From Asterionella formosa (taxonomy: Eukaryota), in the NCBI GenBank assembly GCA_002256025.1, contig NKIB01000495.1:1-32300 (forward strand): 32,300 bases of DNA, written 5' to 3'. Of the stretch, positions 973 through 29,280 are shown piece by piece (within the stretch, counting starts at the first letter, position 1; each line of letters begins with the position of its first letter). The translations under genes were made by a program, and so were the position numbers. Below the pieces are notes generated by a model. That model was given only the letters and a program-made list of their open reading frames with translations, was not told the DNA's origin and ran no database searches.

Positions 973-1957
973 GCAAAAGAAACAACACCAGCGGTTATTT
1001 GCAAATGGCTGTTCTTGATTAAAAACAAATAGCCATTTTTTAGTAACTATTTATGAGTAAATAAAAATTCTTACTTCCATCTTTCCTCATAGGAATCAAG
1101 CAAAAACGAAACTAGTGATGGAGGGATGATATGCTCCGTACCATTTGCTTTTGTGTTAATGGCATTTCCGAATCTTTTGCAAATAGCAACTGAGTTTTGC
1201 TCTGGAGTGGAACCAGGCGACAAATACATGTGAAGTCTCAATGATGCACCATTGGTTTAGGTGATTATCCACAGCACCAGCATGAACCGTATCACCTTGC
1301 ATTAAAAAGATGTACTTGAAGGAAATGCGAAGAAGCATCGCATGTTGGTTGACATGTTCCATAATAACAGGTGTTTCTGACGTTTTTCTTGTAAAAAAAT
1401 TATAAGGATTTGTTCAATGGCTGGGTACATGGTGTATATATCAAGCTATGCTAATGCCTTGATTTTTCTAGTACAGCATGATTGATTTCATTTATTCATC
1501 ATCAACATCTTCATCATAATTATTATTTTGATGGATGTTGACCACATAAATGACATCTCTGTCCCTGATGGTCAGATAGTACTTGGCGTGATAGCAATCA
1601 ATAATGGGCACAGCTGTAACCATGTACAGGGCTGAATGAGTTCCTGTATGAACTGGAGGATTCAATCCAGGTAGGTGATTATTGACTATGGAATGTGACC
1701 TACATCCAGAAGGTCAAAAGTGCAGAGTTGGATAGCTAGCTTTCCAGGAGCATTGCATATGACATATTCGATGCAGTACAGTGTGTTGATCATACTGTTG
1801 TAGCAGCCAGTTGAACTGTTAAAAGGATCTAAGCAGCAAAGTGAAAGATAAATTAATGTGCAATGTTCTTATCAATTCGCACTTTTTGTGCTGTTAGATT
1901 GAAGATGCTGTTAGGGAGGAAATCATCGAAATAGATTATCATTTAGACGATAGTAAT

Positions 1958-2130
1958 TCTACTGCTGTGTAGATAAAATAGTTTATCAACAATTAAAGTT
2001 CTAAACTAGCTAGCTACAAATGTATGAAGAACCATAACGGCCAGTGCTAGTTTATACAATGAAAAACGAGGGAACATCTGTGTTTCCAATGCAGCTAAAT
2101 GACCCCGGAGATGAAAAACCCCTTACCAGC
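1958..2130. repeat. Dispersed repeat copy 1 (family shared with 14263-14440)
   Basis: Colinear blocks TCTACTGCTGTGTAGATAAAATA, AAGAACCAT, CCAGTGCTAG, GGAAC, TCCAAT, CCGGA and CCCCTTACCAG occur in the same order and with similar spacing in both places. Confidence 0.85.
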
Positions 2131-2862
2131 ACACCCTAGGATTGAGGTGAAGAACAAGTCCAAGAAAGCAAGATTCATGAAGCAAGATCAAATAGGTAAG
2201 ACCAAGTAATTTGGCAAGATTGATAGAAAAGTAAACTGAAGTAAACACAAAATTGAAAAAGGCAAATCTAAAAGGAGATTAAAGTGTTGTCGAACTACTA
2301 GCTAGTGAAGAACTAGTAGTACTGGGTACTGGATTTGTAAGGTACTATCAAGAATATCTGGAACATCTCAACAACTATTACTAATACTATAATAAGATTC
2401 GAGCACATGGTTCCGCATAAATTGTACAGCTGTTTTATCAACTTAGAAGGTCTCAGTGTAAAATTATGACAGACACTATAATGAACGATCTACTTTGAGT
2501 AGTTTGAGGTACTACGGAGTACGGATTACCTGGTATGTACATAATGCATTCGTCGATGAATCATTTCGGTTTATGTATACCGGTGGTATGTATTCGTTTG
2601 CTGAAATACTACCCCCATCACACACAGACACGAGCGATGTTTTTCTCGTCGAAGACTAAGGCCTTCGTTGTGGTAAACTATTAGCCCATGATGCTTTTAG
2701 GTAGCGTTTAAGTAGACAAATGTCATATTGGTAGAACGGATGCAGTCTGTGACACCTTATTCTTGAGGGTTGAACCAGAATTGACGAAAGTCAATCTAAC
2801 GGAAGTTTGCTAGTAGCGTGCATGGTGCAGAATCGTTTAGTAAGCAACTGCTACAAGTTAAT

Positions 2863-3459
2863 TTAGAATCCAAAGATGGACTTGACAGCCTTGCCGCTGG
2901 AGGGAGCGGCAGTCTTCTTGACGACGGGTGTTTTTGTGACTTTAGGTGCCTTGGCACCAACCTTCTTTGCTCCGTCAACGGTGGCCCAAAGTGGCTTGTC
3001 GGTGAGACCAGACCAGTCATACTTGGTCTTAGCCATACTGTGTCCAAGATTAATATCGGCCTTCCATTCTGCCTTAGTGTCGGTTCCGCGCTTGATGTAC
3101 CACTCAGTGTAGTCAATGAATTTACCTGCCTTGGCAACGTTCTTCTCGTATCTTGCATTCTTCTTGGCAACCTCCCCAGAACGGACCTTCTCATACTGCT
3201 CCTTGGTCAAACCGGCGGGAATGTAGGATTTCTCGGAGATTGTTCCCAGCTTGACATTCTTGTTCTTGCGAGCGCCATAATCGTTAACACCGGCGTTAGG
3301 GGCGAATAGGTCCATTTCGAAAATGGTTCGGAAGACAGTCTTTTTAGCCGGTTCCTCTGCCTTCTTTGCATCAAGAGATACAGACGAACGGCCCTGCGGT
3401 GCAGGGGCAAACGCAGAAACGGAAATGGCAAGGAGAGCAAGGGTGTAAGCGACCTTCAT
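2863..3459 (-). CDS. Plastid-targeted hypothetical protein (~198 aa), single coding exon, lysine-rich C-terminus
   Basis: ORF 2863..3588; the internal ATG at 3459 begins MKVAYTLALLAISVSAFAPAPQGRSSVSLDAKK, a classic diatom bipartite signal peptide + SAFAP cleavage motif + transit peptide. TAA stop at 2863-2865. Confidence 0.9.
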   Translation of the reverse strand: MKVAYTLALLAISVSAFAPAPQGRSSVSLDAKKAEEPAKKTVFRTIFEMDLFAPNAGVNDYGARKNKNVKLGTISEKSYIPAGLTKEQYEKVRSGEVAKKNARYEKNVAKAGKFIDYTEWYIKRGTDTKAEWKADINLGHSMAKTKYDWSGLTDKPLWATVDGAKKVGAKAPKVTKTPVVKKTAAPSSGKAVKSIFGF

Positions 3460-5251
3460 CTTAGATTCTGTGTTGAGAAAATATGTTACAACCGATGAGT
3501 TTATTTCCAGATAGACAAATAGTGATGACTTGGGTGTGTGATGTGGTCGATAGAGCCTACCACCATCAGTACTACATTTCGTAGCCAAAAGGCGGACAGT
3601 GAGAATACATTTCGATGTCGTCTACTGAACACGAATTCCTCGTGTACTTATCCCCTACAATTTTCAACGTGGGGACAGTCATGGATCATTGCTTCTGCCT
3701 CCGGAAGCGAACAACTGCTTTCGTCGCCACAACTGACAGATCTTTGCTATTGTTTCCGACGTCATTGCAAGAACACAAGCGTACGCACTGATGACGAAAA
3801 CCGATGAAACAAGACGTACTTTTGTGTAGACCACCACCTCTTATCACTCATCCTTTTCACTCCAATCACATCGATGACTCAGTGATACAGAACATCAAAG
3901 GAATTAAGCTGATTGGATGATGTATCTTGTTGATAGCACTATCCTTAATGCTTCAACATGACCCGCCCGATTTCTTGGACCGCACGACAGCAAGGCACAA
4001 CTGTCTGAACAGTTGGCTCTGCAAGGCCGCAGGCAGGCGCGGAGGGAAAATGTGGAGGAACAATGATTAAGTCCATACCGAAGTCCGCAAATAAATTCTA
4101 ACCTTCAAAGACTACTAGTACGGCTATACACAACTTTGGGTGACGGGTCATGCCAGGCAATAATGAGGGTTGCTGTTATCCCTCACTCTGTTGCCAGTTA
4201 AACTTTGTATCTACGAGGAGTGGAAAGGGCTTCATTATAGTACTTGTAATGACATGTTGTTAAGGAGTTAAAAGAAACAGCATAATACATACATGATAAT
4301 ACTATGCATGCATAGTAGTAATAAGTAGTCTAGGGATTATAGGAATAACATATGTAATCTTTTGTTTCCAAATATGTTTGTAGAATCTGAGGGCGAGAGT
4401 TACATTCAAACATAACCAGGAGCAACGCCAAATTCCATTGATTTCTCGCTGCAAGAAAGAAAAACAAAATCCCTCCAAAGTTTCACTGATGTAAGCAAAC
4501 ATGATGGTACTCATATTTTGGGTGTTACAAAATAGTAGGTGAAATAGTTAACTTGTCACAAATTCATTTGTTTTCTGTAGTAATAGGCATGGCGTTAGAT
4601 AGAACCATATTGTTTATGCTCTTTTAGGAGGAAGTATTCCCAAATAGCAATGCTATCATACTCAATATTTATGAAAGATTCATGAATGATTCCAGCACTC
4701 CCTCCTCCTACAAAGTATTGGGGACAAGACTTGATTTAAAAAGCAACTACCATATTACTAATCATTTGTGTATAGTCCTAAGTCAAAACTTGAAACATGA
4801 ATGTAATGAAAGACAAAATGGGATGAAGTAGTGGCAATGTATGCATGATAAATAATATAATCTTCTCTCTGAATTACTTTCATCACCTAGGCAGTTTGAT
4901 CAAGTCGACTTGGAATTGCATAAATTTTACCTATGATATTCGCTGCAACATAATAAACATGCGCATTTCTATGCTTGTCACACAAATTACACACTACCTG
5001 ATAAATCATTGGGGACTTCATATTTTACCTGTACAATTGAAGAGCTGACGTATGCGAACCAACAGTATCAGTACTTTAATGAATGAGAGTATGTAGACTA
5101 TGGCTAAACCAAAGTTCCTTGTGTACAAACAATCGAGATGATCTCCATGAAAAATATGAAAGCATGCAAGTGGGAATTCCTACGCGATGCTTTGGACTCA
5201 AGACAATTCGAAGATTTCCTCAAAATCAATAATTCATGAAATACCATTTCA

Positions 5252-6260
5252 CTATTTTTCTGCATCCGCTCGCATGATTTTATGTGCTTTTTTCAGGAGC
5301 TTCTTAAATTCCTCCTCGTTCAATCCCATACTTGCTAGAAACGTGTCGCATTCTCGCATAAACTTCTTGTCAATTTTTCCCATCAAATTAAACCTAGCAA
5401 AAAATACATCCCATCGCTCTCCAATCAATTCTATAGCATCAAGGAAAGCAATCTTTCCGGAAGAATCAAAGTTACCATACTTCGCTCCCATTTCAATTAG
5501 GTTGGCATGATCTCGACACAACTTAGTATACTCTTCCTTGACAATGGGATTGTCAAAGACACTGTCGTTTTCTGTAAATGGACTCGCCGTGACCTTTTCT
5601 GCTGATGTCATGGCTAAAAAAATGTGGTTAGATGTGATTTTGGGAAGTGTTTGAGTTGTCGCAAAAAAATCGTTATAGCGTACCTGTCATACTCAATCCT
5701 TTGCCTTGCTGCGATTGGGCCATCATTGCGTTCAGATCTATTTCTGAAGGTGGCATGGGTGGTGGTCTATTTAGTGCCATGGCTTTCATGCACCCACTCT
5801 GCCATTTCATCATGCTGGCAATACCTTTGGCTGACAATCCCTGCGTCTGGAGATGAGCCTGGGTCAATTTAGCATATTCATTGGTTTGATAATCACCAGA
5901 TAGTTGAAGACGAGTGAGCAGCGCCTCCCAGAGATCCACCGAATTATCAATTTCATATGCCACTTTCAATAGTCTTTCTTTATCCGGAGTATTTCCCATT
6001 TCCATATCCAACTGAATTCTTGCCAATTCAGTTGCGAATTCTGGTGTCTGTGCATTCAAGGTTTCCATATTTGATGCAACTTCGATAGATGCAGACGATC
6101 GAAAAGGACAGAATGGTCCTACAGGTGTAAGGGCCATATTCAGAGTTTCAGGACACGGTCGCTGGATACGTCGTGCATTAGTATTCCCAATGAATGCCGC
6201 AGTCGATCTGTCAAAGCATATGGCGCAATAGATTGCAACAATCATTCGCTTCGTTGACAT
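5252..6260 (-). CDS. Two-exon DUF1825-like protein, probably plastid-targeted; exons 6260-5684 and 5613-5252
   Basis: Intron 5683-5614 (70 nt): GTACGC donor, CTAAC branch, T-tract+AG acceptor; splicing joins the two ORFs in frame (MT-A-MTSAEK). The C-terminal FDNPIVKEEY..LIEMGAKYGNFDSSGKIAFLDAIELIGERWDVFFARF matches the cyanobacterial DUF1825 pattern from recall. N-terminus is hydrophobic and followed by STAAF. Confidence 0.88.
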
Positions 6261-6320
6261 TCAGTTGAAAAGGTAAAATGGATGGTGCTTGATGTGTTTT
6301 TCGTTGGCCAACTTTGAGTA

Positions 6321-6566
6321 TTGGCGAAGGTGGTGGCGGTATGGATTGCTGAAGGCAATACACGCCCGAGGTGGTCTCTTGCCTGCGAGTATACATGTGT
6401 TCGAGGCTGGGTGGCGCGAGTAGGTTGACCGTACGAGTGGCGCCCCCGGCGCTGCGAGAAGATCACCCTACGAGTGCCATCCCAGTCGAGTACACATGTG
6501 TACGAGAAGGCAAGTAGCCGCCGAGAAGGGTATTGTTGAGGCAATTCCCGCTCTAGCTATCGTCAA
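6321..6566 (+). ncRNA. Putative structured element (RNA or ssDNA): long rod-like hairpin with periodic CGAG/CGAG tandem G.A internal loops
   Basis: CGAG at 6367, 6386, 6402, 6417, 6434 | 6455, 6471, 6487, 6503, 6522, symmetric about a CCC loop at 6445-6447. Intervening segments are complementary with many G.U pairs. The fold is visible in the sequence; transcription is not demonstrated. Confidence 0.6.
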
Positions 6567-6621
6567 GTCATTCGCTTACCTACTGCCCACAAATTTAGCA
6601 TAAATGTCAATTTTAGCCTAC

Positions 6622-6726
6622 TATTGCCCATCATATAAAATACATTTTGTATATTTCCTATCTTCACCTCGAAAATTGCCAAAGGTCCGATATTGCCCAT
6701 CATTAAAATATATTTTATATATTTCA
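6622..6726. repeat. Short AT-rich direct duplication (~35 bp, copies at ~6622 and ~6691)
   Basis: TATTGCCCATCATATAAAATACATTTTGTATATTTC vs TATTGCCCATCATTAAAATATATTTTATATATTTC. Confidence 0.85.
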
Positions 6727-9556
6727 TATGTTCGCATTTTGGCAAGACAACAGACACCAATTGCCCCTCGGTTCTCCAGCCCTGGGATTGCCGAAATCGG
6801 CAAGGGGTCTACTTAAGGAAACCATTTTATATACTATACAGATTCTAATAATTTATATCTAGAATTCACCTCATTTTTGTTCGTCTCCTGAAAAGTGGAC
6901 TCCGGCAATTCACCTTTCACCATGCCAATCGTTGTCCATCATGACCGGTTTGAAGCGAAATCAGTTCCGCGATGACGCCAGTAGTGATTCGTTGTCTAAC
7001 GGATGCGGTTGATTGTTGGATTGCTTGTCTTCTCGAGGTATTCATGTAGTCGCATCGTCCATATTTCGTCGGATGCACGATGATATCGATATATCTGATG
7101 TTGGTGGCAAGTTTTTGCTCCGGTCATGTATGTAATGATGCTTAACGGATATTCTACCGGTACCGGCAGTCATCTAGTCTACATACGTACGTGGTACTAA
7201 AAACAACCATGCATGCTTTAACGCTTACTTTGAACACGTTATAATATTATCTCTGTAGACTCGGTATTATTTCTACGAGACCTAAATGTTAAATTTTATC
7301 GTTCACATATTGATTGATTTTACGTACCGTATGCCCGATTTCGTCCTCACAATTATAGTTCTCACTCTATCTTTCCTGCCTTTGCTCTATTCGGGCTTGC
7401 AATAGGCAACGATCATCTTTCTTGATCCCATCATCTGCTGCTTGTTATGCTAGTTGAAGCGGATTGGTGAGTACAACAGTGAAACACTGAATGTGGATTG
7501 TAGATAGTATTTATCGACTTTCCGATTTGATTGCTTTCATTGTTTGTTTTGATCGCTTCCGTAGTTGTTTGTCGTTCCGCACAGTCGTTTTGTTTCGAAT
7601 GAATATATCTACATAAGAACCAATGTATTTATCAATGACTACTCTTTGAAGATGTGGTATTGTGCCGGTGTTGATCGTATTTGTTGATTTGTAAAGTCGT
7701 TGACAATTATGTCAATATTGCTGTCAAGCAATGCTTTACTTGTACTAACGCGCTTTGCTACATTTCCACTACGAGTTCATATCAGAAGCTACGTATATTC
7801 AGCTAGAAGGGGTCGATAGTGCTGGAGCAGCCTGGCGATTTTCCTTATTCAGAATGGATTGGAATGGAATGATGATCAGGGTTGTTTGGTGGGACAACTT
7901 GTGTCAGGCTCCTTCAGCGATGTGCATGGTTACAGCAAGCAGATCATCTACGCTACATAACGATGCAGGTCAAGATTGGGTTCAGCTTTTTCCCTTCTTA
8001 TTTCGGTCGTTGATTGTGTGGTGATGGAAATTCAATTGCCTGTGTAAGTACTAACAATGTCACAATGCATACATCTCCATTGAAACTCTTATTTTTTACT
8101 TCATTTCTAACCCTAACAATTTTTTCTATTTCTCATTTGACGCTACTTATTACATCGAATATCATACTTTGGCTCCAAACATCATATTCAATTTTCATTG
8201 ATGTTGCATGTTACAATCATTCTCATTTGTTTTACGCTTGTTGTCCCATTTCTATGCATATTACCGTTATTCTGGTTGTCAAGCTAAAATCGGCAATTTT
8301 AATGCCAAAGAAATCGATGTTCCACATATTGCCCCTAAATAAAAATTACTTAGAGCCTAAAAATTGCTTAGAAGTACCCAAATGGCAAGACAATAGCTGG
8401 AGCGGGAATTGCTTCCAGCAACACATTATTTGTTGCTCCGAAATGAGTATCAAAGCGTTCTTCATGAGGGTTTTTATGATTTGTCCAATCAATAACAAGA
8501 AATTTGCGCTGAGTTCTTTTTATGTCACAAAAACGACTTGGAAGGACATTTTAGTGCAGCAACAACCTCTATTATGATGAATTTATTGAAACAATACTAC
8601 ATGTCCAAACATCTACCACAAAAAAAAGAATCCGAATCGACAAAGGCAACCAATCATGGCAAACCGAAATGAAAAGATTGGACATAAAGTCGTCATTTTG
8701 AATACAAGTGGCTGTTGCAGTCAAGAAAGTGATATGCGTTCAGAAGGAGGATGAGGAATTCATAATTTTGTTATCTCTCATGTATTTCTTCTATTAAAAG
8801 TGTTTGTTTTCTCGTCCTTGGTATATGGAGTGGTGGATAGCATCCCCTTGTTTATTTGCTGGGTCTCGGACGATGCTTTTCTTGGGTTTCTAATAATGAC
8901 TTCTCAATTGAAATACTATCGCTGCAGCACTTTCTTTGCGTATTGAGATGTCTGGCATCATTGTAGCTTTCAACCAAGGGTCGCTCGAAAATCATCACTA
9001 TCTCGATAGTTCGACTTGAAACATTGCTAGTCAGCGCTTCCACAAAAATCTCCCAAGATGCAGCCTTCATAAAATCGAACAAAGTACATTTCCAGCCAAG
9101 TCCTCCACCCAAGAAAGAGCCAACTGTGGCAGCGACCCCTCCTCCTGCTGGTAGGCCTATGGTCCATTGTCAAGTGTAATGCAAAAGATGTCCAACTTTT
9201 TGCTGCCGTGACTGTCCTTGGTGCACACTGCAGTTTGCCTTTCGGAGCCACATCTAGACCTATAGCGAAAATGTACAATTTCTGAAGGACCTGTAAGGAT
9301 AGATTTGAAAAAGAGATTTCAAAAACGTCAGCCAATCCCCTTGTCTGAAGAATGGATTGAATGTAAGCATCAACACCAGCCATAAGACAAGAGGCCATTG
9401 ATAACAAAAGCTCTCATTTTCTAATGTACTAGGAGTATATGTTGAGAAAGCCCTTGCGATGGAAATAGTCTTAATCCTTCAATAGCTCAACGTTGGCTGG
9501 GTCTGCAGGCGATTTAGATACATATATAATCTTCAAATAGCATCAGTATATAACTT

Positions 9557-9676
9557 CTGACGAGAAACTGCAGAAAGGAACTTGCTACATATGCAAGATA
9601 AAGTGATTTCCCCCGAAATTTCCAGTCTTTATAGCATAGTAAAGAACCGAAGTTCCTTTCTGCAGTTTCTCGCCAG
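9557..9676. mobile_element. MITE-like foldback: 27-bp inverted repeats with 66-nt spacer
   Basis: 9557-9583 CTGACGAGAAACTGCAGAAAGGAACTT vs reverse complement of 9650-9676 CTGGCGAGAAACTGCAGAAAGGAACTT (26/27). Weaker symmetry extends to ~9541/9692. Confidence 0.65.
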
Positions 9677-10125
9677 TTCCTATATCCTGACGATATATAG
9701 CGTTGACCTATACCCCTCCTATGATCACTGACTGTATCTAAGCATATGGAAAGGGTGAAAGCTCCGTTTAGCGATATACATGTATGTTTTACGTCTAAGA
9801 AGTGTATGTTTGAGTACTCTGACTCAATATTTTTTTAAACCCTACCTCTAAGGGCTGAAATGCAGCAACCTTAATAGCGACAAATTCGAATGCTGAGTCT
9901 GATGCACATGTTTGCAGAGACACAAAACGCGACTAACTGTTTTGCCATTATTGAGACATATTTGTGAAATGTATCTCTGTAAAGATTCATTTTTTTCTGA
10001 AGATACAATCTAAAAATTAAAATAACTATTTTTCTCTCTGTTAAAACCTGCCCTTTCTTGATATAGTATTGAGCCAAGTCTGTTGTCACGAACACCGCAA
10101 ATATCAATAAAAAGAATGTAGCTTA

Positions 10126-12054: not shown

Positions 12055-12168
12055 AAAATGATATTTCGTCCCCCTAACCCTAGCCCTAATCCCTAAGCCT
12101 TAACTTCAGTTGCTACCTTGGAAGAGTCTAGGGTTAGGGTTAGGGTTAGGGGGACGAAATATCATTTT
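12055..12168. repeat. Foldback element with interstitial telomeric repeats (CCCTAA)n...(TTAGGG)n
   Basis: 28-bp perfect inverted match AAAATGATATTTCGTCCCCCTAACCCTA / TAGGGTTAGGGGGACGAAATATCATTTT, continuing inward with degenerate CCCTAA units on the left and perfect TTAGGG units on the right. Confidence 0.9.
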
Positions 12169-14262
12169 GCTTTTTTATTACTGCTACTTTTACAAATAAA
12201 ACAGTATGATTCCTATGTGGGAATTAGTTATTTTTCACCGCAATTGTGGGCTCAATTAAAATGTACTCCGAGTATGGCGACTGGTGGTGGAAACAACGAT
12301 ATGACAATGACGATCCAACTTTTCTTGACAGATAAATAGTGCCGGATAGCCCTAATGTGCGCCATCTTAAAAGCTACAGATCTATTTGTAAAATAAATGT
12401 ATTTAATTTAAATAAGGTAACTGTTTCAAAAAACTTTTTTTGCTTTCTCCAATAAGTTACTTTGAAATGACCTAGTAATCAAGATTCGCTAGGAATATGA
12501 TCCGCGATATGAAGTATGTACATGAAAGTCAGTGCTAAAAAATAAGTTGTGGTACTTTCTTGCATTTTGAGCTGTTGCACCCCTTCCAAGATTTCTTTTC
12601 CTCACTGTTTCTCATTAATTTATGCTGTAGATAGAAAAAATCATCTAGGGGCTTAAGTCATCAAGCTAGCTACTACGGTCTCAATTGTGTCTAAACTTTG
12701 GCTATATCTTCAAAATTGAGCAAAGGACGACCAAAACTAATTCTAGTGGCGATTTCAGTTTTTGTGGTCAATATTAATGAAAACAAAAATTTTATTGAAT
12801 GATTACCTAGGTCTATTTTATGCTAGATCTACATGCAAAATTGGAATGATTCATTATAAATTTTCGTGGAGATATTGAGCCCGTTCATTTCATCATGGTC
12901 TAGACAGCCAGAGATGATGAATCATAGACCCCCCTACATTGGCAGAACAAAATCAAATTTACTTATGTATTTGTAGTACCAAGCCGGCATGCACATGGAG
13001 AACTTGTCATCTGCAGATAGGATCCAGATGCCAGGGCAGGTTCATCACGTTTCGGTCTTTAGACTTGATATTCATATCATGCTTATCCCCTAAGTGCTCT
13101 CCATATTATGCAAGCCATGTAATATGCTGGTACATACCGTGGTTGTTTTTCCTACATATGTAGCTATGATACCAATAACTGGTGCCAGTACCAGTATGCT
13201 ATTATTTTCACAACCAGGGACCAATATTTTATTCTATATGACTATCGAGTAGAGTACAAAAACATATGGCTAACTTGTTTACACCTGTTAAACTTAAAAT
13301 ACTGGTACACCGGTAGGCGTGAAGTTGCATATTTTAATCCAAAAGAAATGCACAGTGATACATTATGACCAGATACTTAGATGGGCTTGGCTTTTGTTCA
13401 ATATTATGTACATGCAGTTCGATTGAGACGCCCTACATACTGCTAACTAAAATCCAGTACATATATATTCAGATAATAAGGAAAGTGCATGCATGCGTTG
13501 TCGAGCATGATTGTTTAGTCAGCTGGCAAAAACAGATCCATATAGTTACATATATGTGTACCTGTGACATATGTATGAAATTTGAATGCACAGAAGCATA
13601 CCAGCATGATCTACATGATATTTGTACAATGAAATAATTTATAAATATAAAAATAGATTTTTATTTTTAGTTTATAAAATTGACTGATGGTGGGTTTGGG
13701 GAGCTAATGAAAGCAGACGAAAGCAAAAAAACACTTTTCCAATGAGAGCATTCAAATTTATAATTGCTCTTGTTTGATCAAATTTCGGAGCATGAACAAA
13801 GTTGAGGCACCATTAAAACCGCATCAGCCTGTTTGGTCTACGCGAATTGTAACAATTACATTAGCTCCATTCATTAAAAAGTAAAATATAAGCAATTTTA
13901 GTAATATTTGCTGGTGTTTTTGTTATTGCCGCTATCTATGTATGAAATCTATCTATATATATAGGTAGACTATTGTTTGCTTGTTTGTGTATATACTTCC
14001 TGTTTATCTTCGTCTTTATACTAAGTCACTGTGTTCATTTACAATCACTCTGTTATAATGAAATCTACATAGAAATAGAAATTAGAAACTTACAAGAAAA
14101 ATGACATAAATAATTATTGATTTACTAGATATTTAATCAGAAAAAGTAATGAAACATTCCCTGGAAAAACAACTCATTGTGTATTTTCAGACATTTTGTG
14201 CAAAAAGTGTAATGGACCAGGAAGACATTCTCGACAGAGATGATCAGTTTTGTAATAAAAAC

Positions 14263-14440: not shown

Positions 14441-16506
14441 TCCACCTTACTATTAAACTTGACCAATAGGAATTTGCGGGTCTACTCAATTGCACCTTCC
14501 CCAGCTGCTGAGCGACCTATTAGGTAGCATCCCTGCCAATTACAAGCAAAGCCGCTTTCCCAATGTGAGGTATCTCATAATTGTTGTCGCCATTTTTTAA
14601 GCAACCCTAAATGATAACCTGTTTTATAGCCCAATCCTAATCCCATTTTTCAAGGCAAGTATTCATTGTTCTGCCTGCTGACAAGACGTGTGCTTCCCTA
14701 CCTGTAGTTTTGTTAGCGTAGCTGAGTCTTCAACCACCCTTCACGAAAGATGATCGTTTTTGCCGCAGCGTTAGGTGAAACTCCGACCGTCTAGGAACAA
14801 GGCGGCAAAAGCTGCTTGTAGGGGAGGCAACTCTCTATTTCTTGCACACCAGGCAACAACGTGCGGGACGGTAAGGAGTGTGGGAGTCGAACCCAACAAA
14901 TAATTCTCAAAAAATTTGCGGGAATCGTTCCTCACAACCTCAGATCAAAGGCAATGTGCTAAACCAACCACCGTAAGCCATTCCCTTTTTCAAGCAACCT
15001 TGTACTGTAAAGAAAGAAAATTTTACACCCATTTCTTTGGTTCTAACAAAATGAATGTTGCCTGCCCTGGCTGCCTCTATCAAACTGTAGACGTTGGAGT
15101 CCCATTGACCTGACTTCAATGCCTTAGAAAAGATAGATTGTCGATATTCAAATCCGGAAGATTCACTGGTTACTAAGTCAATCAAATATCCCATTCTTCA
15201 TCTATTGCCGCGCCTACAAAGGTAGCATTGTCTCTATTACTATCCTTGGCAATCCAAAAAAAACTGTTGACTTGGGAAGGGCAAGAGCAGCTGCTAATTT
15301 ACTATATTGCACGATTGCAATATGGAATATTTCTATTGCTGGAATCATGCTAAGGATACCCAAGGTAGCTCTCATACTAGCTGGAATATAAAAATTTCGC
15401 TGAGATTATGCGATTCTTTTATATTTATAGAAAACGCTAGAGAGAAGTCATTGTGATCAGCTGGAGAATCCTTCGTCATGCCATCGCAGTTGACCATAAC
15501 GAAAAATGTGAATATCTGACACAGTCAATACAATTGTCAATTGATGATTGTAATAACACTAATATTAAAAACGAAAATTGAAGAATTTTTCATGTCATTT
15601 AGAGATGCAAAATTCAAAACAAAGATGATACAAACAGATTTGACACTTTCACAGTAGCTGGAATACGAATAAAATTGAAACTCACTTATAACGCGCTTGC
15701 TAAGACCACGGAGTGATACTATAACGACTAGAACAATATAATGATTAATTAAAGCAAAAGATGAGACATAAATCCTTTATCATCAAAGAATAGATTCTTC
15801 ATAGTGATACTTTCTGTCATTTTTCTCAATTAGACATGTGATGCCAGACAGGAGCTCCTTATGTTCATCACACATCGAGAACATCATCAAGTCACTGTTT
15901 GAATTTGTCTACATATGCATCAGGACTTAGCTAGTAAGTTAGGTTTAGAGATAATTTTCATTCTTCCAAACGAAAAAATTGGTCAAAAAAATTGCAGATG
16001 GCAAAAAGCAAATGACGAAGAAGACTGGTGGTTGTCACGAAGCAAAAGTAAGCAAATCACCTTTGTCTCAATAAACAATGAATTATAAATCAACTATTGT
16101 TTTGGTCATATTTCCTTGTAGAAGATGGTATCTTTTAGGACGGCGCATATGTATGAATAAGACGCGTTATTCTTCATTGAATAAGACAATGAGGCAGGCA
16201 TTGGGATATCATAAGTGGCATTGAGCCTCATCGTGATTTTCCGATTTTTATCTGCTACAACTTAAGAAATATTGTAGCTGAAATAATTCTTTTACTTTAA
16301 GTTTGCGACTATTCGATTCTATCTATTTCACTAGTCTAGTATAGAATAACAAATGAGGGGAGGAAGTACAGAAAAATGTGGAACTTATATAGTTTCTGTA
16401 CGTAAATCTGTGGGGGATTTCGTCCATATTTTTCCTAACAGCCAGTTCTGTCAGCAGCGGTTTTTGCTTGCTTCCGCCGTGATTCATTTTTTCGGCCCCT
16501 GCTTTC

Positions 16507-19300
16507 CGGAAAAATGTGGATGATTTTCACCACAGAAATGTGTAGAAAGTGCGTTCAATTTTTTACCACTGTAGGCCTACATAAATACCGGTAATAGATT
16601 CACTACGAATGTCTAGTACCTGGTAGCGGGTACTCCTGCTAGGTACCAGGTACCACAGGTACCATCAGTACCTGGGACCTGGTAACTGCTGAGAGTTGAG
16701 AGTATGGTACCAGGTACCAGGTACTGGTGGTACCATGTGCTCGTCATCTACATAGCTACCGGTAGCTATGACTAACAGTCGACTGAGCACATGATTTCAT
16801 TTTGCTATAATGAGCTGGACAGTATAGACTATTTGGAAGACCAAAAGTTTGAATCGAACGATCAATGGTTATAAACTTATGATCAATAAGTGTGAGATAG
16901 ACATGGGTCTATCTATGAATTTATGTTCTGACAAATGCAAACAGCATTTGGAAAAATAGTTTGTTTGATTACTCAAACTGAACAAACCTAACTAGTTTGC
17001 TTAGTAACTCACAAAAAGAATAAAGAAACAAAAAAAAGAAAATAATGTCTCGATCTATAGTCTTCTTTGTCTAACGATATATCTATCAACTAAAAGGTAA
17101 TACTTTAACACCATGTAGTATATTAGAGGTTGTGTGGACGAGGTATACCAGGTAGCTCTGTGGGTATTCGCTTCTCTCATATGAAGAATGATCAGGATCG
17201 ATCAAAAAACTACAAGCCCAGACATGTGTATACAAATCCTGAGGATTTTTCTGTGTGTCCAATCACTGCTTTGTTTGAGTACATGTGTGTCAACCCAGAT
17301 ATTATCCAAAACTCTGATGGGCCACTCTTTCCAGGTGCAAATCAAGAGGATCGCTTTAGAAAGATTCTCAAGCAACTTTTCAAGAAGCATGAGGGGAATT
17401 TAGATAGGTATGATGTTGATGAACTTGGCACCCACAGCATAAGCAAAGGTGCAACAACTTATGCTTCCAGTGGATCGACAGCAAGCCCATCAAGTGTTGC
17501 CATTAACAGCCGTGGGGGTTGGACTCTAGGCAGTGTCAGAGATGAAAGCAGGTGACCGTTATGTTGGTCGCATTTTAGCTGGGTTACCATTACTCTCAGT
17601 TAGTTTCTGAGCCAAATTTTTGGATGAAATGCCCATGTAATGACAGTGCCATACAAGACCAGTTGATTCTTGATGGAAAGGTTCTTGCTGGCTTGCGGGC
17701 CTTATTTGGTGAAGTGCTTCGTCGACAAGCAGCTCTCTCCCTCCATTTCTACAAGTGGTCTTGCTTGTGTGTTGCATCACATGGAGAATCTACAAATACT
17801 GAGAAAGGATCAAACATCATCGATGCATTTAACAGGAGTGTATAAATCAAATGAAATTGCAGCAATTTCAGATCAGGTTGTTGTTCGATATCCATTTAAA
17901 GAAAAGGATTTTTTCTCAATTAAATTGACTGGCATTCCTCCACATGTTGCGCACCTTGCTGCCATAGAGCAAATGAGAGGTGAATTTCTCCGCATCATTG
18001 CTTAGTGATTTTGAGAAAATGCTCAATGATCGAACTTATGCTGATGTCATTTCAGAAAATCGAATGGAGGCCATCATGGAAAAATTTATTGGGCAAAAGC
18101 TCCTTGGGTTGACTGAATGACTAGACCAAGCAGCAACAGGGAATTATGCTGCATCAAACAACCCAACAACTCCAAACAACCAGAAATCATCCTCCCATCT
18201 GTTTTTGCATCCTCATGATGGATTGTTCCGGAGAGTTCCAGTTGGATGGCAGTTCCCGCTTTGTGCTGTAGCTGTTGCTTACTGTTTATGGCATATGGGA
18301 GATGACAGGAATAAAATTGGTCCATTACAGTTTTTAGACAATCATGATGTCAGTTTTGAGACTGTCACAAAGGCGAATGCTGATGGTGCCAGTGGTGAGG
18401 AGCAAGTTGTTGTCTGGAAAGGATGCAAAAGGGGGATCAAGTATTTAGATGAGTTCAGGAAGATAATGAAAAGATTGGATGGCAGAGGAAAAAATCGAGG
18501 CTTCCTGCAACCTCCAATTACAAGAGAAAATGTCCTTGTTGCTCTTGAGCAATGCATGGACTGTCTTGGCATTTCACCTGTGACTGCTCAAGGGAGGAAG
18601 AGACGTGTTGCAAGTCTGAAGTGGAACACTGCTTTTAGACAAATGCCTACAGAGAGAAATGTTGTTGTAAGAAGTTGTGGCACTAATGCTCGAAATTGTA
18701 TTCCATACATTGGTGATCCAATGGTTATTGCCATGTTGAAAGATGGTGAAGCATCAGCAAACTTGCAAGAAGTCTAAATGTTCATTCGTCACTTTCTATC
18801 TATTTAATTAAATAATAACCATATACTAGTACATTTGCATATTCTTTATCACTACTGGTAGATTGGTGCTCTACCCTGCTTTATATCATTCAGCCAAATA
18901 CTAGCTAGGAGTAACACTCTGGCTATCTATGACCATATCACCATTGCTTTGTACATAACCGTTAATACAGTATCAGTGCGGTTGTTTTAATACTGCTAGC
19001 TATACTACTACAAGATTTGATTGACAATTTATTAGTATAAAGTACAACTGGTAGTATATTTACTGCAATTCCTCATCGTCCGATGGTACTTGGTACCTGG
19101 TACCTGGTACCAGTAGCGCTAAATCCAGTTGTATATGGACATAAAATTTCGTGTACAGTACAGGTATACCGTGTATCTTTTATGTACATACGTAATTAGT
19201 GTGTCGTACAGTACTCGAAATGATCAACCGTAGAGGACTACTTAGACTAACATAAACCCGACATTTCAAATCTGTGGGGAAAATCATCCACATTTTTCCG
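16507..19300 (+). mobile_element. Decayed Crypton-type (CryptonS-like) tyrosine-recombinase transposon region bracketed by 30-bp inverted repeats
   Basis: Internal YR pseudogene. 16507-16536 CGGAAAAATGTGGATGATTTTCACCACAGA is the inverse of 19271-19300 (29/30). GGTACC-rich tracts lie inside both ends. True element ends are not established. Confidence 0.7.
17157..18777 (+). pseudogene. Crypton tyrosine recombinase (C-terminal half) plus C-terminal putative DNA-binding region; 5'-truncated and frameshifted
   Basis: Motifs KNDQ...PRHVYTNP...CPITAL...LFPG...LGTHSISKGATTYASSGSTASPS...RGGWTLGSVRD, then (frameshift) AGDRYVGRILAGLP, TGIPPHV, and FRRVPVGWQFP...AYCLWHMGD. These match oomycete/diatom Crypton proteins from recall. 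The catalytic HxxR reads HSIS, and the catalytic-Tyr segment appears deleted at ~17545. Confidence 0.85.
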
Positions 19301-26995: not shown

Positions 26996-27225
26996 TCGTC
27001 TGCAAATTAAAATTATCATGAAATTAGGATCAAGGGTATCACACACTAAGTGGCACAGGACTTCTCCATCTATGATAGTTCTTCGGTTAAAAAAAATGAT
27101 CAATTAATATTATAAGTATTCGTCTGCAAATAAAAAAAATCATGCATATAGGATCAAGGGTATTGTACGCTAAGTGGCACAGGATTTTCATATATTTGAT
27201 AATATTTGGATCAAAACTATGATCA
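26996..27225. repeat. Diverged tandem duplication, period 124
   Basis: TCGTCTGCAAAT...ATCATG...TAGGATCAAGGGTAT...CTAAGTGGCACAGGA...ATGATCAA starts at 26996 and again at 27120. Confidence 0.9.
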
Positions 27226-28112: not shown

Positions 28113-28841
28113 ACATTGGTGCTCCCCAACAAGCGAAACGAACTATTGAATCAACTGAGAAGAAAAGAAATGTGCGTTTAGTTAACAATTTGTTGTTGTC
28201 CTGCCTCCCAACGATTTTCACCCAAGTACCACATTGATGGCTTTATTAACTTAAATATACTCCATCCTTCGAAGGCGCAATGTGTCGAAGCCACAAAGTT
28301 TTTCGTTATTGCGTAAACTTTACTTGTCATATACTGTACTACGATTTTTCTTTTCACGAAGCAGGCATTGTTTGTTAACATGACAGAACGATTTCAAATA
28401 TATTTGCCATGTATATAGTAATAAAATTTGTAAAAAAGTAAATATATCAAGTGTCGTACATTTATAAAATTCAAAGGCACTCTCAATCTGGCATGTCTGG
28501 TAGCTATTGTTGAGATGATCATATTTGCATATAGATAATTCGAAAATATTCAATGCACGATAGGTCCATTGTTTTCCACGACTTCGTGTACCGGTACTGT
28601 TTCTGAAATTTGTTTGCATCAATATTTTCTACTTCCGCTGGAACTTATTATTTACCGGCAGACTATTAAATTGGTGTAAGTGATAACCCATTTGCATCAT
28701 TATTTTTATGCAAGAATTTTGGTAGCAAATTGTTTAAGCCCCTTTTTTGGGCGGGAGTTTTTCATGTGTACATCAGATGATCATAACATTTTATCATACA
28801 TATATTAAGAGTATCAGTGGCAGGTTGGAAGTGATATACTG

Positions 28842-29069
28842 GGGGTAGTCGGAGTAGTAAGCAAGCAACAGAATACCATATGGTAAGGACTGTTGCTACT
28901 GCAGCGGGACAGTAAATTATCATAGTTTCAGGATCGTATTATCATAAAATTGAAAGGGGATAGTCGGAGTAGTAAGCGAGCAACAGAACACCGTATGTTC
29001 AGGACTGTTGCTACTAAAGTGGGACAGTAAATCATCATAGTTTCAGGATCGTATGATCGTAAAATTGAA
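28842..29069. repeat. Tandem duplication, period 115
   Basis: TAGTCGGAGTAGTAAGCRAGCAACAGAA...GGACTGTTGCTACT...GGGACAGTAAATYATCATAGTTTCAGGATCGTA...AAAATTGAAA starts at 28846 and 28961. Confidence 0.95.
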
Positions 29070-29280
29070 AACAAGATATGCTATTACTGAAATTCGGTTC
29101 TGATTTTGCATATGATAATGGAAACAGCACCACTGTTGGTCTTATGGTATCATATCTAGACAGTGTAAAATATTATATGTAGTGGCTGATGATTCATTTC
29201 ATTGTAGCTTGCAACACCTGATTCTAAGTTCATCGAAGTTTAAGGAAGAGAACGACAACAGTTATCTAGTAGTACAAGCA

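Follow-up and report, generated by a model that had tools for sequence, protein, structure and literature searches.

A CGAG-bearing hairpin in Asterionella formosa as the probable fold-back end module of a high-copy DNA repeat

The locus and the fold of its hairpin

The window analysed here is a 32,300-nt stretch of Asterionella formosa DNA (contig NKIB01000495.1 of assembly GCA_002256025.1, positions 1 to 32,300 of the forward strand). It contains a single-copy gene with a DUF1825 domain, followed by a long hairpin, which we call module H, and by a larger non-coding body, which we call E (Table 1). RNA contigs of the DUF1825 gene end at 6300-6303 in two runs, which places module H about 45 nt upstream of the start of the gene. 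The same 10 letters (TCATTCGCTT) are found at 6242-6251, in the first codons of this gene, and at 6568-6577, to the right of the hairpin; because the right-hand occurrence lies inside an inverted terminus of the repeat described below, we take the agreement to be chance.

Table 1. Coordinates of module H, body E and their surroundings in the window.
Feature	Position	Strand	Description
Neighbouring single-copy gene, DUF1825 domain	5200..6303	-	Intron 5614-5683; RNA contigs
Outer stem of the hairpin as first annotated	6321..6344	+	Local flank, pairing by happenstance with 6547-6566
Fold-back module H, family-wide	6345..6548	+	204 nt; 74-bp rod; CCC loop at 6445-6447
Internal loops of module H	6345..6548	+	Five CGAG/CGAG 2x2 G.A loops, one GAA/GA loop; from fold and energies
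Five CGAG of the 5' arm	6367..6437	+	Starts 6367, 6386, 6402, 6417, 6434
Five CGAG of the 3' arm	6455..6525	+	Starts 6455, 6471, 6487, 6503, 6522
Junction palindrome U1	6345..6359	.	ATTGC, 5-nt spacer, GCAAT; marks the left boundary
Junction palindrome U2, between module H and body E	6532..6545	.	ATTGT, 4-nt spacer, GCAAT
Body E	6541..8412	.	1.9 kb, non-coding, inverted termini; depth profile, loose ends, ORF list, translations
Left inverted terminus of E	6541..6572	+	Pair I3 (42 nt, 79%); 44-column alignment
Right inverted terminus of E	8381..8412	-	Most copies end ...ATTGC(T), at 8412-8414
Five ATTGCC subterminal repeats	6623..6792	+	6623, 6675, 6692, 6760, 6787

Several other repeated arrangements occur elsewhere in the window. 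In its middle, at 12055-12168, two 38-nt arms that are 95% complementary lie 38 nt apart, and their inner parts are of telomere type, CCCTAA-like in the left arm and three TTAGGG in the right, set head to head. A 30-nt inverted repeat (97%) at 16404-16536 and 19268-19300, with 2.7 kb between its halves, overlaps a 32-nt direct repeat and encloses three ORFs of 111-190 aa without a Pfam match; this arrangement (16404-19300) is possibly another mobile element. There are also an inverted repeat at 9537-9696 (47-nt arms, 83%, 66 nt apart), a 115-nt tandem duplication at 28841-29070 (90%) and a 97-nt direct repeat at 26996-27216 (76%, 124 nt apart).

The first-pass annotation described 6321-6566 as a rod-like hairpin in which ten CGAG tetramers mirror one another about the terminal loop. 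A motif count places all ten starts where they had been reported (Table 1), and the starts of mirror pairs do sum to 12888-12889. Ten of the 57 CGAG in the window fall within the hairpin, which is the richest 250-nt stretch of the window for this motif, and spacing within the arms is 15-19 nt, or about 16 nt. The complement, CTCG, occurs once in 6200-6700 and not at all in the 204-nt module, against ten CGAG there.

Folded as RNA, the + strand of 6321-6566 forms a single unbranched rod of 92 bp with a minimum free energy (MFE) of -134.1 kcal/mol. The rod is as the annotation had it, and the fold lies far beyond chance: 200 dinucleotide shuffles averaged -87.6 kcal/mol (z -9.06), and none of the 200 was as good. 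The - strand reaches only -93.4 kcal/mol (z -4.34), which bears out the statement that a good fold is limited to the + strand. With DNA parameters the two strands give -58.9 (z -5.7) and -47.6 kcal/mol (z -4.1), respectively, so that the strand difference is 41 kcal/mol under RNA parameters and 11 kcal/mol under DNA parameters. The module alone, as RNA, gives -110.1 kcal/mol (z -8.9) for the + strand and -81.3 kcal/mol (z -5.0) for the - strand.

In the MFE structure of the + strand, CGAG faces CGAG five times out of five, always as a 2x2 GA/GA loop with C-G closure, and there is one further loop of GAA against GA. Antiparallel 5'-CGAG-3' duplexes form sheared pairs. The good fold is confined to one strand because both arms carry CGAG on the same strand, at five regular places: every CGAG/CGAG loop of the + strand has an energy of -0.7 kcal/mol, and the MFE structure of the - strand retains two CUCG/CUCG loops at +1.4 kcal/mol each. 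If 2.1 kcal/mol per site held at all five sites, the motif would contribute about 10 of the 29 kcal/mol by which the strands of the core differ.

How could such loops have arisen? The annotation held that simple inverted duplication would not yield CGAG opposite CGAG, and this argument stands, as two transversions would be needed five times over. As all five loops are identical, and a palindrome would differ from each of them by two transversions, we infer that the array is not a product of chance. Nested insertions with CGAG as the target duplication were considered and rejected, as they would require five unrelated 30-nt palindromic elements. The excess of G.U over A.C on the + strand is also present, with 14 G.U in the full rod in place of the roughly 12 first counted; within the module (6345-6548) the tally is 10 G.U to 2-4 A.C oppositions, a weaker excess than the annotation had supposed and not significant alone (binomial p 0.18 for 10 v 4). 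CpG-methylation decay was rejected as the source of this excess, being a strand-symmetric process, and the changes among copies are themselves symmetric (9 v 12).

The hairpin had not been recognised as a member of a known family, and Rfam covariance models at the gathering threshold indeed gave no match in the window. The sole sub-threshold match in 6000-6900, to snoZ40 (16.2 bits v 50, E 4.1), lies outside the hairpin.

Module H lies at the left boundary of a high-copy repeat

Four sequencing runs were compared over 5200-8800; the runs in which the stretch occurs carry the label of algae, freshwater or lake-water metagenomes. In DNA run X6 the summed depth is 3.9-5.3 over 5200-6288 and 4.0 over 8467-8587, and over 6289-8466 it is 1,148-6,756. 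In all, 2,531 contigs, most of them 85-99% alike, contribute to it. Such a sum is not a copy number, and it is the several-hundred-fold step on both sides that marks a high-copy repeat. This repeat spans about 6345-8414, with module H at its left boundary. Unrelated sequence is found as loose ends on both sides, in 6 RNA contigs before 6345 and in 10 behind 8412-8414. Self-comparison detected no second copy in the window, only a 35-nt inverted match of 6538-6572 with 8381-8415.

These observations change the standing of the hairpin. It had been put forward as an undescribed structured RNA locus standing alone, and it is one copy among very many, the older of which decay without compensation. 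A terminus of a mobile element had been offered as another option, and it is partly borne out, as module H starts exactly at the left boundary of the high-copy repeat.

The left boundary can be placed at 6345-6347, where the translations of four copies (P0005, P0006, P0007 and P0010) follow the module and then, at 6344-6347, pass into four unrelated flanks. The translation of P0001 is 95% identical from 6703 to 6332, yet differs at 6341-6346 and past 6331. Since the match of the copy translations ends at 6345-6347, 6321-6344 is local flank and the family-wide module comprises about 6345-6548. At 6306-6321, in the flank of the outer stem, DNA run X6 has a total depth of only 4.7. Thus the outer stem, which had been drawn as part of the hairpin, is by depth profile and diverging copies outside the repeat. 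In the same flank, three linked differences (6306 G>T, 6320 A>T and 6321 T>A) account for about half the depth in run X6 (2 of 4.7), and the same three are present in an RNA contig of run X8; they probably represent a second allele or strain of the flank.

Body E contains no ORF longer than 91 aa wholly inside it. Its inverted termini extend over about 30-44 nt (6530-6572 against 8424-8381, 44 alignment columns), and 7 of the 11 ATTGCC in the window fall in 6289-8466, namely the five subterminal ones and two further inside. The first ~38 nt of the 5' arm of the module (6346-6383) resemble the terminus of the body, so module and body make up one family. Small palindromes are carried by the unit junctions, U1 and U2 and a third of the form ATTGC-5 nt-GCAAC at 8408-8422, hence ATTGCT stands at both outer boundaries (6345-6350 and 8408-8413). 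Reading the sequence for a target-site duplication revealed no direct flank repeat at 6345/8414 or at 6541/8412, where the boundaries are uncertain by 1-2 nt and the right end of this copy is without a module.

Shortened forms of the repeat also occur. Two shortened hairpins have joints (6387>6489 and 6392>6492) that fall between two copies of a 12-nt near-palindromic unit, and a further one has the joint 6397>6553. In a derivative of about 100 nt, 6345-6382 is joined to 8354-8414 (joint 6382>8354); contigs with this joint have depths of 1,547 and 3,170, the highest in two RNA runs, and are unlisted for DNA run X6. The derivative resembles a MITE carried within abundant transcripts. Four loose-end consensuses after 8413-8414, from three RNA runs, start with GATG and then diverge, which could reflect start codons of genes beside different copies, or a subfamily that extends further.

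Additional copies of the repeat were found as spurious predicted proteins that run through it in metagenomes, and are thus seen as translations only, not as DNA; all were placed on the window by tblastn. There are 68 related translations: 6 plus 2 from the query 6245-6556 (- strand), 38 from 8014-8574 (+ strand) and 22 from 6566-6808 (- strand). A second, exhaustive search with the 6245-6556 query gave 9 hits, from which P0008, P0009 and P0011, long repetitive proteins that are unrelated, were dropped. Most left-end translations stop at a common stop codon near 6557-6559 and are uninformative on the module, while P0001, P0010 and P0065 read through and contain it, P0065 in shortened form.

At the right end, drawing on the 38 proteins of the 8014-8574 query plus P0002 and P0004, 28 translations have at least 5 residues past 8412. 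Unrelated sequence follows in 22 of them, the module in inverted orientation in five (P0002, P0004, P0027, P0038 and P0039), and the module in direct orientation in one (P0025), via an ATTGC-TGGAG-GCAAT junction as in the U1 arrangement. This count leaves out P0013 and P0015, whose translations go no further than the end, and P0035, P0037, P0040-P0043 and P0045-P0048, in which the end is not reached in the mapped frame. P0003 and P0049 were rejected as further cases of a direct module at the right end, their alignments being weak (E 0.2 in one mapping, none in another). One flank is common to P0030 and P0044 among the 22 unrelated right flanks, and at least four left flanks are different. With 22 of 28 right ends lacking the module, copies need not have it at both ends. 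In P0003 the inverted module is read twice (6513>6367, then 6472>6338), a partial internal duplication of the hairpin.

P0045 is 72% identical to the ORF at 8434-8574, to the right of the repeat. Its upstream part has no counterpart in the window, and it is probably a paralogue or from a related species. P0045 was rejected as an empty site: only the right flank, 8434-8574, matched, and it hence has no bearing on insertion. Pattern searches were also carried out. A motif-only pattern of four CGAG at 16-nt intervals found unrelated sequences among the matches listed in viral contigs, and is therefore useless as a descriptor. Three exact patterns derived from the window had no match in viral contigs; one exact pattern had a single chance match in metagenome contigs (L121, an AT-rich bacterial contig), and one had two chance matches in prokaryote genomes (L122 and L123, both in bacterial coding sequence). 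No relatives of P0025 were found in viral contigs.

Do the copies preserve the fold? Translations were read back by parsimony in 11 copy segments of at least 65% identity, a procedure that registers non-synonymous changes only. At paired positions, 9 changes turned Watson-Crick pairs into G.U, 12 into A.C and 18 into other mismatches, and 5 turned G.U into Watson-Crick pairs. Compensation among homologues, on which the first-pass annotation would have relied, does not appear: the 11 segments contain no double, compensatory change. Changes affect 13 of 296 covered positions in CGAG, mostly as CpG transitions, and 64 of 1,122 elsewhere. Given equal rates of change in and outside CGAG and no compensation, the older copies decay neutrally, like dead transposon copies, and selection is therefore visible only in how the consensus is designed and not as covariation. 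P0001 (6703-6332) and P0025 (91% amino-acid identity, 6344-6514) have no amino-acid change at the CGAG sites that they cover. As CGAG is intact in these near-identical copies, the motif belongs to the recently active sequence and not to this locus. Individual pairs differ among copies. At position 6500, 4 of 6 other copies have A, so that at least one G.U pair is private to this copy; 6486 is inferred to be C in three copies, one of them from a weak alignment, and the G.U there may likewise be private; A6462, opposite C6429, is G in 6 of 6 other copies.

Competing explanations and known systems

The hairpin is likely, in our view, to be a palindromic, fold-back module at the end of a high-copy DNA repeat of this freshwater alga, a repeat that is non-autonomous and unclassified. 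We found no gene for a transposase, a recombinase or a Rep protein in the window, and saw no autonomous partner there. The main alternative, to which we assign a clearly smaller probability, is a role as RNA: + strand transcripts, whether read-through or element-borne, would fold, the rod would be a small-RNA precursor, decoy or regulator, and G.A loops every ~16 nt would set processing or blunt the recognition of dsRNA. Such a role is suggested by the larger strand gap with RNA than with DNA parameters, by the excess of G.U pairs over A.C oppositions, and by the fact that three RNA libraries have contigs with the module in them (X8 records 24 and 25; X14 record 2; X18 record 9). Furthermore, the ends of the repeat in run X8 have summed depths of ~1,560-2,830 against 0-360 for the interior, unlike in DNA run X6. 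However, that end depth comes largely from the 6382>8354 derivative, which is without the CGAG array past its first site, contigs reveal neither strand nor RNA ends, and RNA libraries can contain DNA. Stretches of the repeat that lack RNA cover in some runs carry no evidential weight. The neutral decay of copies also argues against an RNA role, and against the far less probable idea of a stand-alone structured non-coding RNA gene. The strong + strand fold and the lack of a match to a known family would suit such a gene, but very many copies, varied flanks, truncations and both orientations beside the repeat body make it very improbable.

Rather than acting as a single strand, module H could simply be the long arm of an ordinary MITE or fold-back repeat, with CGAG as duplex binding sites or as an accident of one founder. 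The high copy number, the non-coding body, the inverted termini and the subterminal repeats are all as expected of such an element. Neither covariation nor motif conservation is seen among copies, and all copies seen may stem from one recent founder, P0001 and P0025 being 91-95% identical as protein. What makes this explanation doubtful in our view, somewhat more so than a role as RNA, is the array itself: all five symmetric 2x2 loops are the same favoured GA/GA with C-G closure, two transversions each, and one strand of the 204-nt module has ten CGAG and no CTCG. A unidirectional 4-bp site on both arms would also seem to misfit the two-fold symmetry of binding to a double-stranded end.

Compared with MITEs and fold-back transposons in general, the repeat is similar in being short, non-coding and high-copy, in its inverted termini and subterminal short repeats, in its internal-deletion derivatives, in the rod formed by a single strand and in its location near the 5' end of a gene. 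It differs in that the arms are not true inverted copies, with CGAG on the same strand at five regular places, in that no target-site duplication was found, and in that a small palindrome links the module to a longer body, at one end or at both.

Two systems in which a folded strand is a substrate offer partial parallels. In integrons, the folded bottom strand of attC is recombined by a tyrosine recombinase (PMC5027507). An attC site is an imperfect palindrome in which unpaired features tell the strands apart, and it lies at cassette boundaries, much as here; it is bacterial, ~60-140 nt long, and has extrahelical bases, not periodic tandem G.A. No recombinase was found in our analysis, and a functional resemblance to attC is speculation. 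In the minute virus of mice, a parvovirus, the bubble of the terminal hairpin is GA against GAA. More generally, the parvoviral terminal palindromes are 100-200 nt long, combine paired with deliberately mismatched nucleotides (the 'bubble') and form the end of a replicon (PMC8242256). Like them, the module can occur at either end, with the opposite orientation in one copy; unlike them, the repeat has no viral genes, is integrated, high-copy and non-coding, and lacks the module at 22 of 28 right ends.

Among eukaryotic elements, Helitrons have 5' TC and 3' CTRR termini and a short 3' hairpin and insert into AT. We rejected a Helitron, as the termini here are ATTGC... and ...ATTGC(T) on either strand. 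Replitrons are HUH/Rep transposons of algae and plants, present in several algal lineages, with short direct repeats at or near both termini and mostly no target duplications (PMC10288648, in part). The only hairpin described in that part is an 11-bp palindrome at the right end; it makes no mention of long inverted termini, and gives no Replitron as detected in diatoms (PMC10288648). Similar here are ATTGCT at 6345-6350 and 8408-8413 and the lack of an evident target-site duplication, and different is that no Rep gene is seen in this window; since ATTGCT makes up one half of the junction palindrome as well, its occurrence at both boundaries may be a consequence of the inverted termini. Cryptons are tyrosine-recombinase transposons described as having no terminal inverted repeats and 4-6 bp terminal direct repeats (PMC3212892, in part), and are excluded by the inverted termini of ~30-44 nt. 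TATGG, which the same excerpt gives as a common terminus of CryptonS in oomycetes and a diatom (PMC3212892), stands at 6340-6344, directly left of the repeat boundary, and is absent at the right end and in the back-read flanks of other copies.

Tandem sheared G.A motifs of RNA, such as kink-turns, are alike in having tandem G.A flanked by C-G. A kink-turn was rejected, as the five loops are all symmetric 2x2, without a 3-nt bulge. In the literature, with Repbase and Dfam outside the comparison, we came across no transposon end reported to have tandem G.A loops at regular intervals.

A folded single strand as the proposed substrate

Loops that cannot come from inverted duplication, and that stabilise one strand only, suggest that the active lineage may have been selected for the fold of that strand, the one with its 5' end at the terminus of the element. 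As the end of a mobile repeat, module H would most likely fold in single-stranded or extruded DNA during mobilisation, where it could give a mobilising enzyme a strand-marked, regularly spaced scaffold. Strand-marking by mismatches would then be analogous to what is seen in parvoviral terminal hairpins and integron attC sites. A single-strand function of the module, as DNA or as RNA, would accord with how the consensus is built, and the G.U excess would suit RNA better than DNA.

A bolder reading, which we regard as a long shot, combines several features of the repeat. The junction palindromes that bound module and body (arms ...GGAATTGC / GCAATTCC..., with a 4-5-nt spacer) could serve a eukaryotic element as sites of recombination. 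That element would move, or be rearranged, by site-specific or single-strand chemistry, with either an HUH enzyme or a tyrosine recombinase at work. Its folded, strand-selective substrate would be the 200-nt module, with the five tandem G.A loops as strand markers and ruler. If true, this would be a eukaryotic counterpart of attC, CTX-phage attP or parvoviral hairpins, and such a mechanism would account for the finding that either end of the body can have the module next to it, in one orientation or the other.

The analysis also holds a lesson, in that candidates for 'structured RNA' in eukaryotic windows deserve a copy-number test first. If the loops are an accident of the founder, the repeat is one more MITE-like repeat. 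If they are functional, it would be a eukaryotic mobile element with an end that is read as a folded single strand. Ends of this kind are well documented in bacteria and small DNA viruses; in eukaryotes, to our knowledge, the short hairpins of Helitrons and Replitrons are the main examples. As an abundant family with recent copies and a position adjacent to a gene start, the repeat would make the role of strand-specific structure in mobilisation or silencing tractable.
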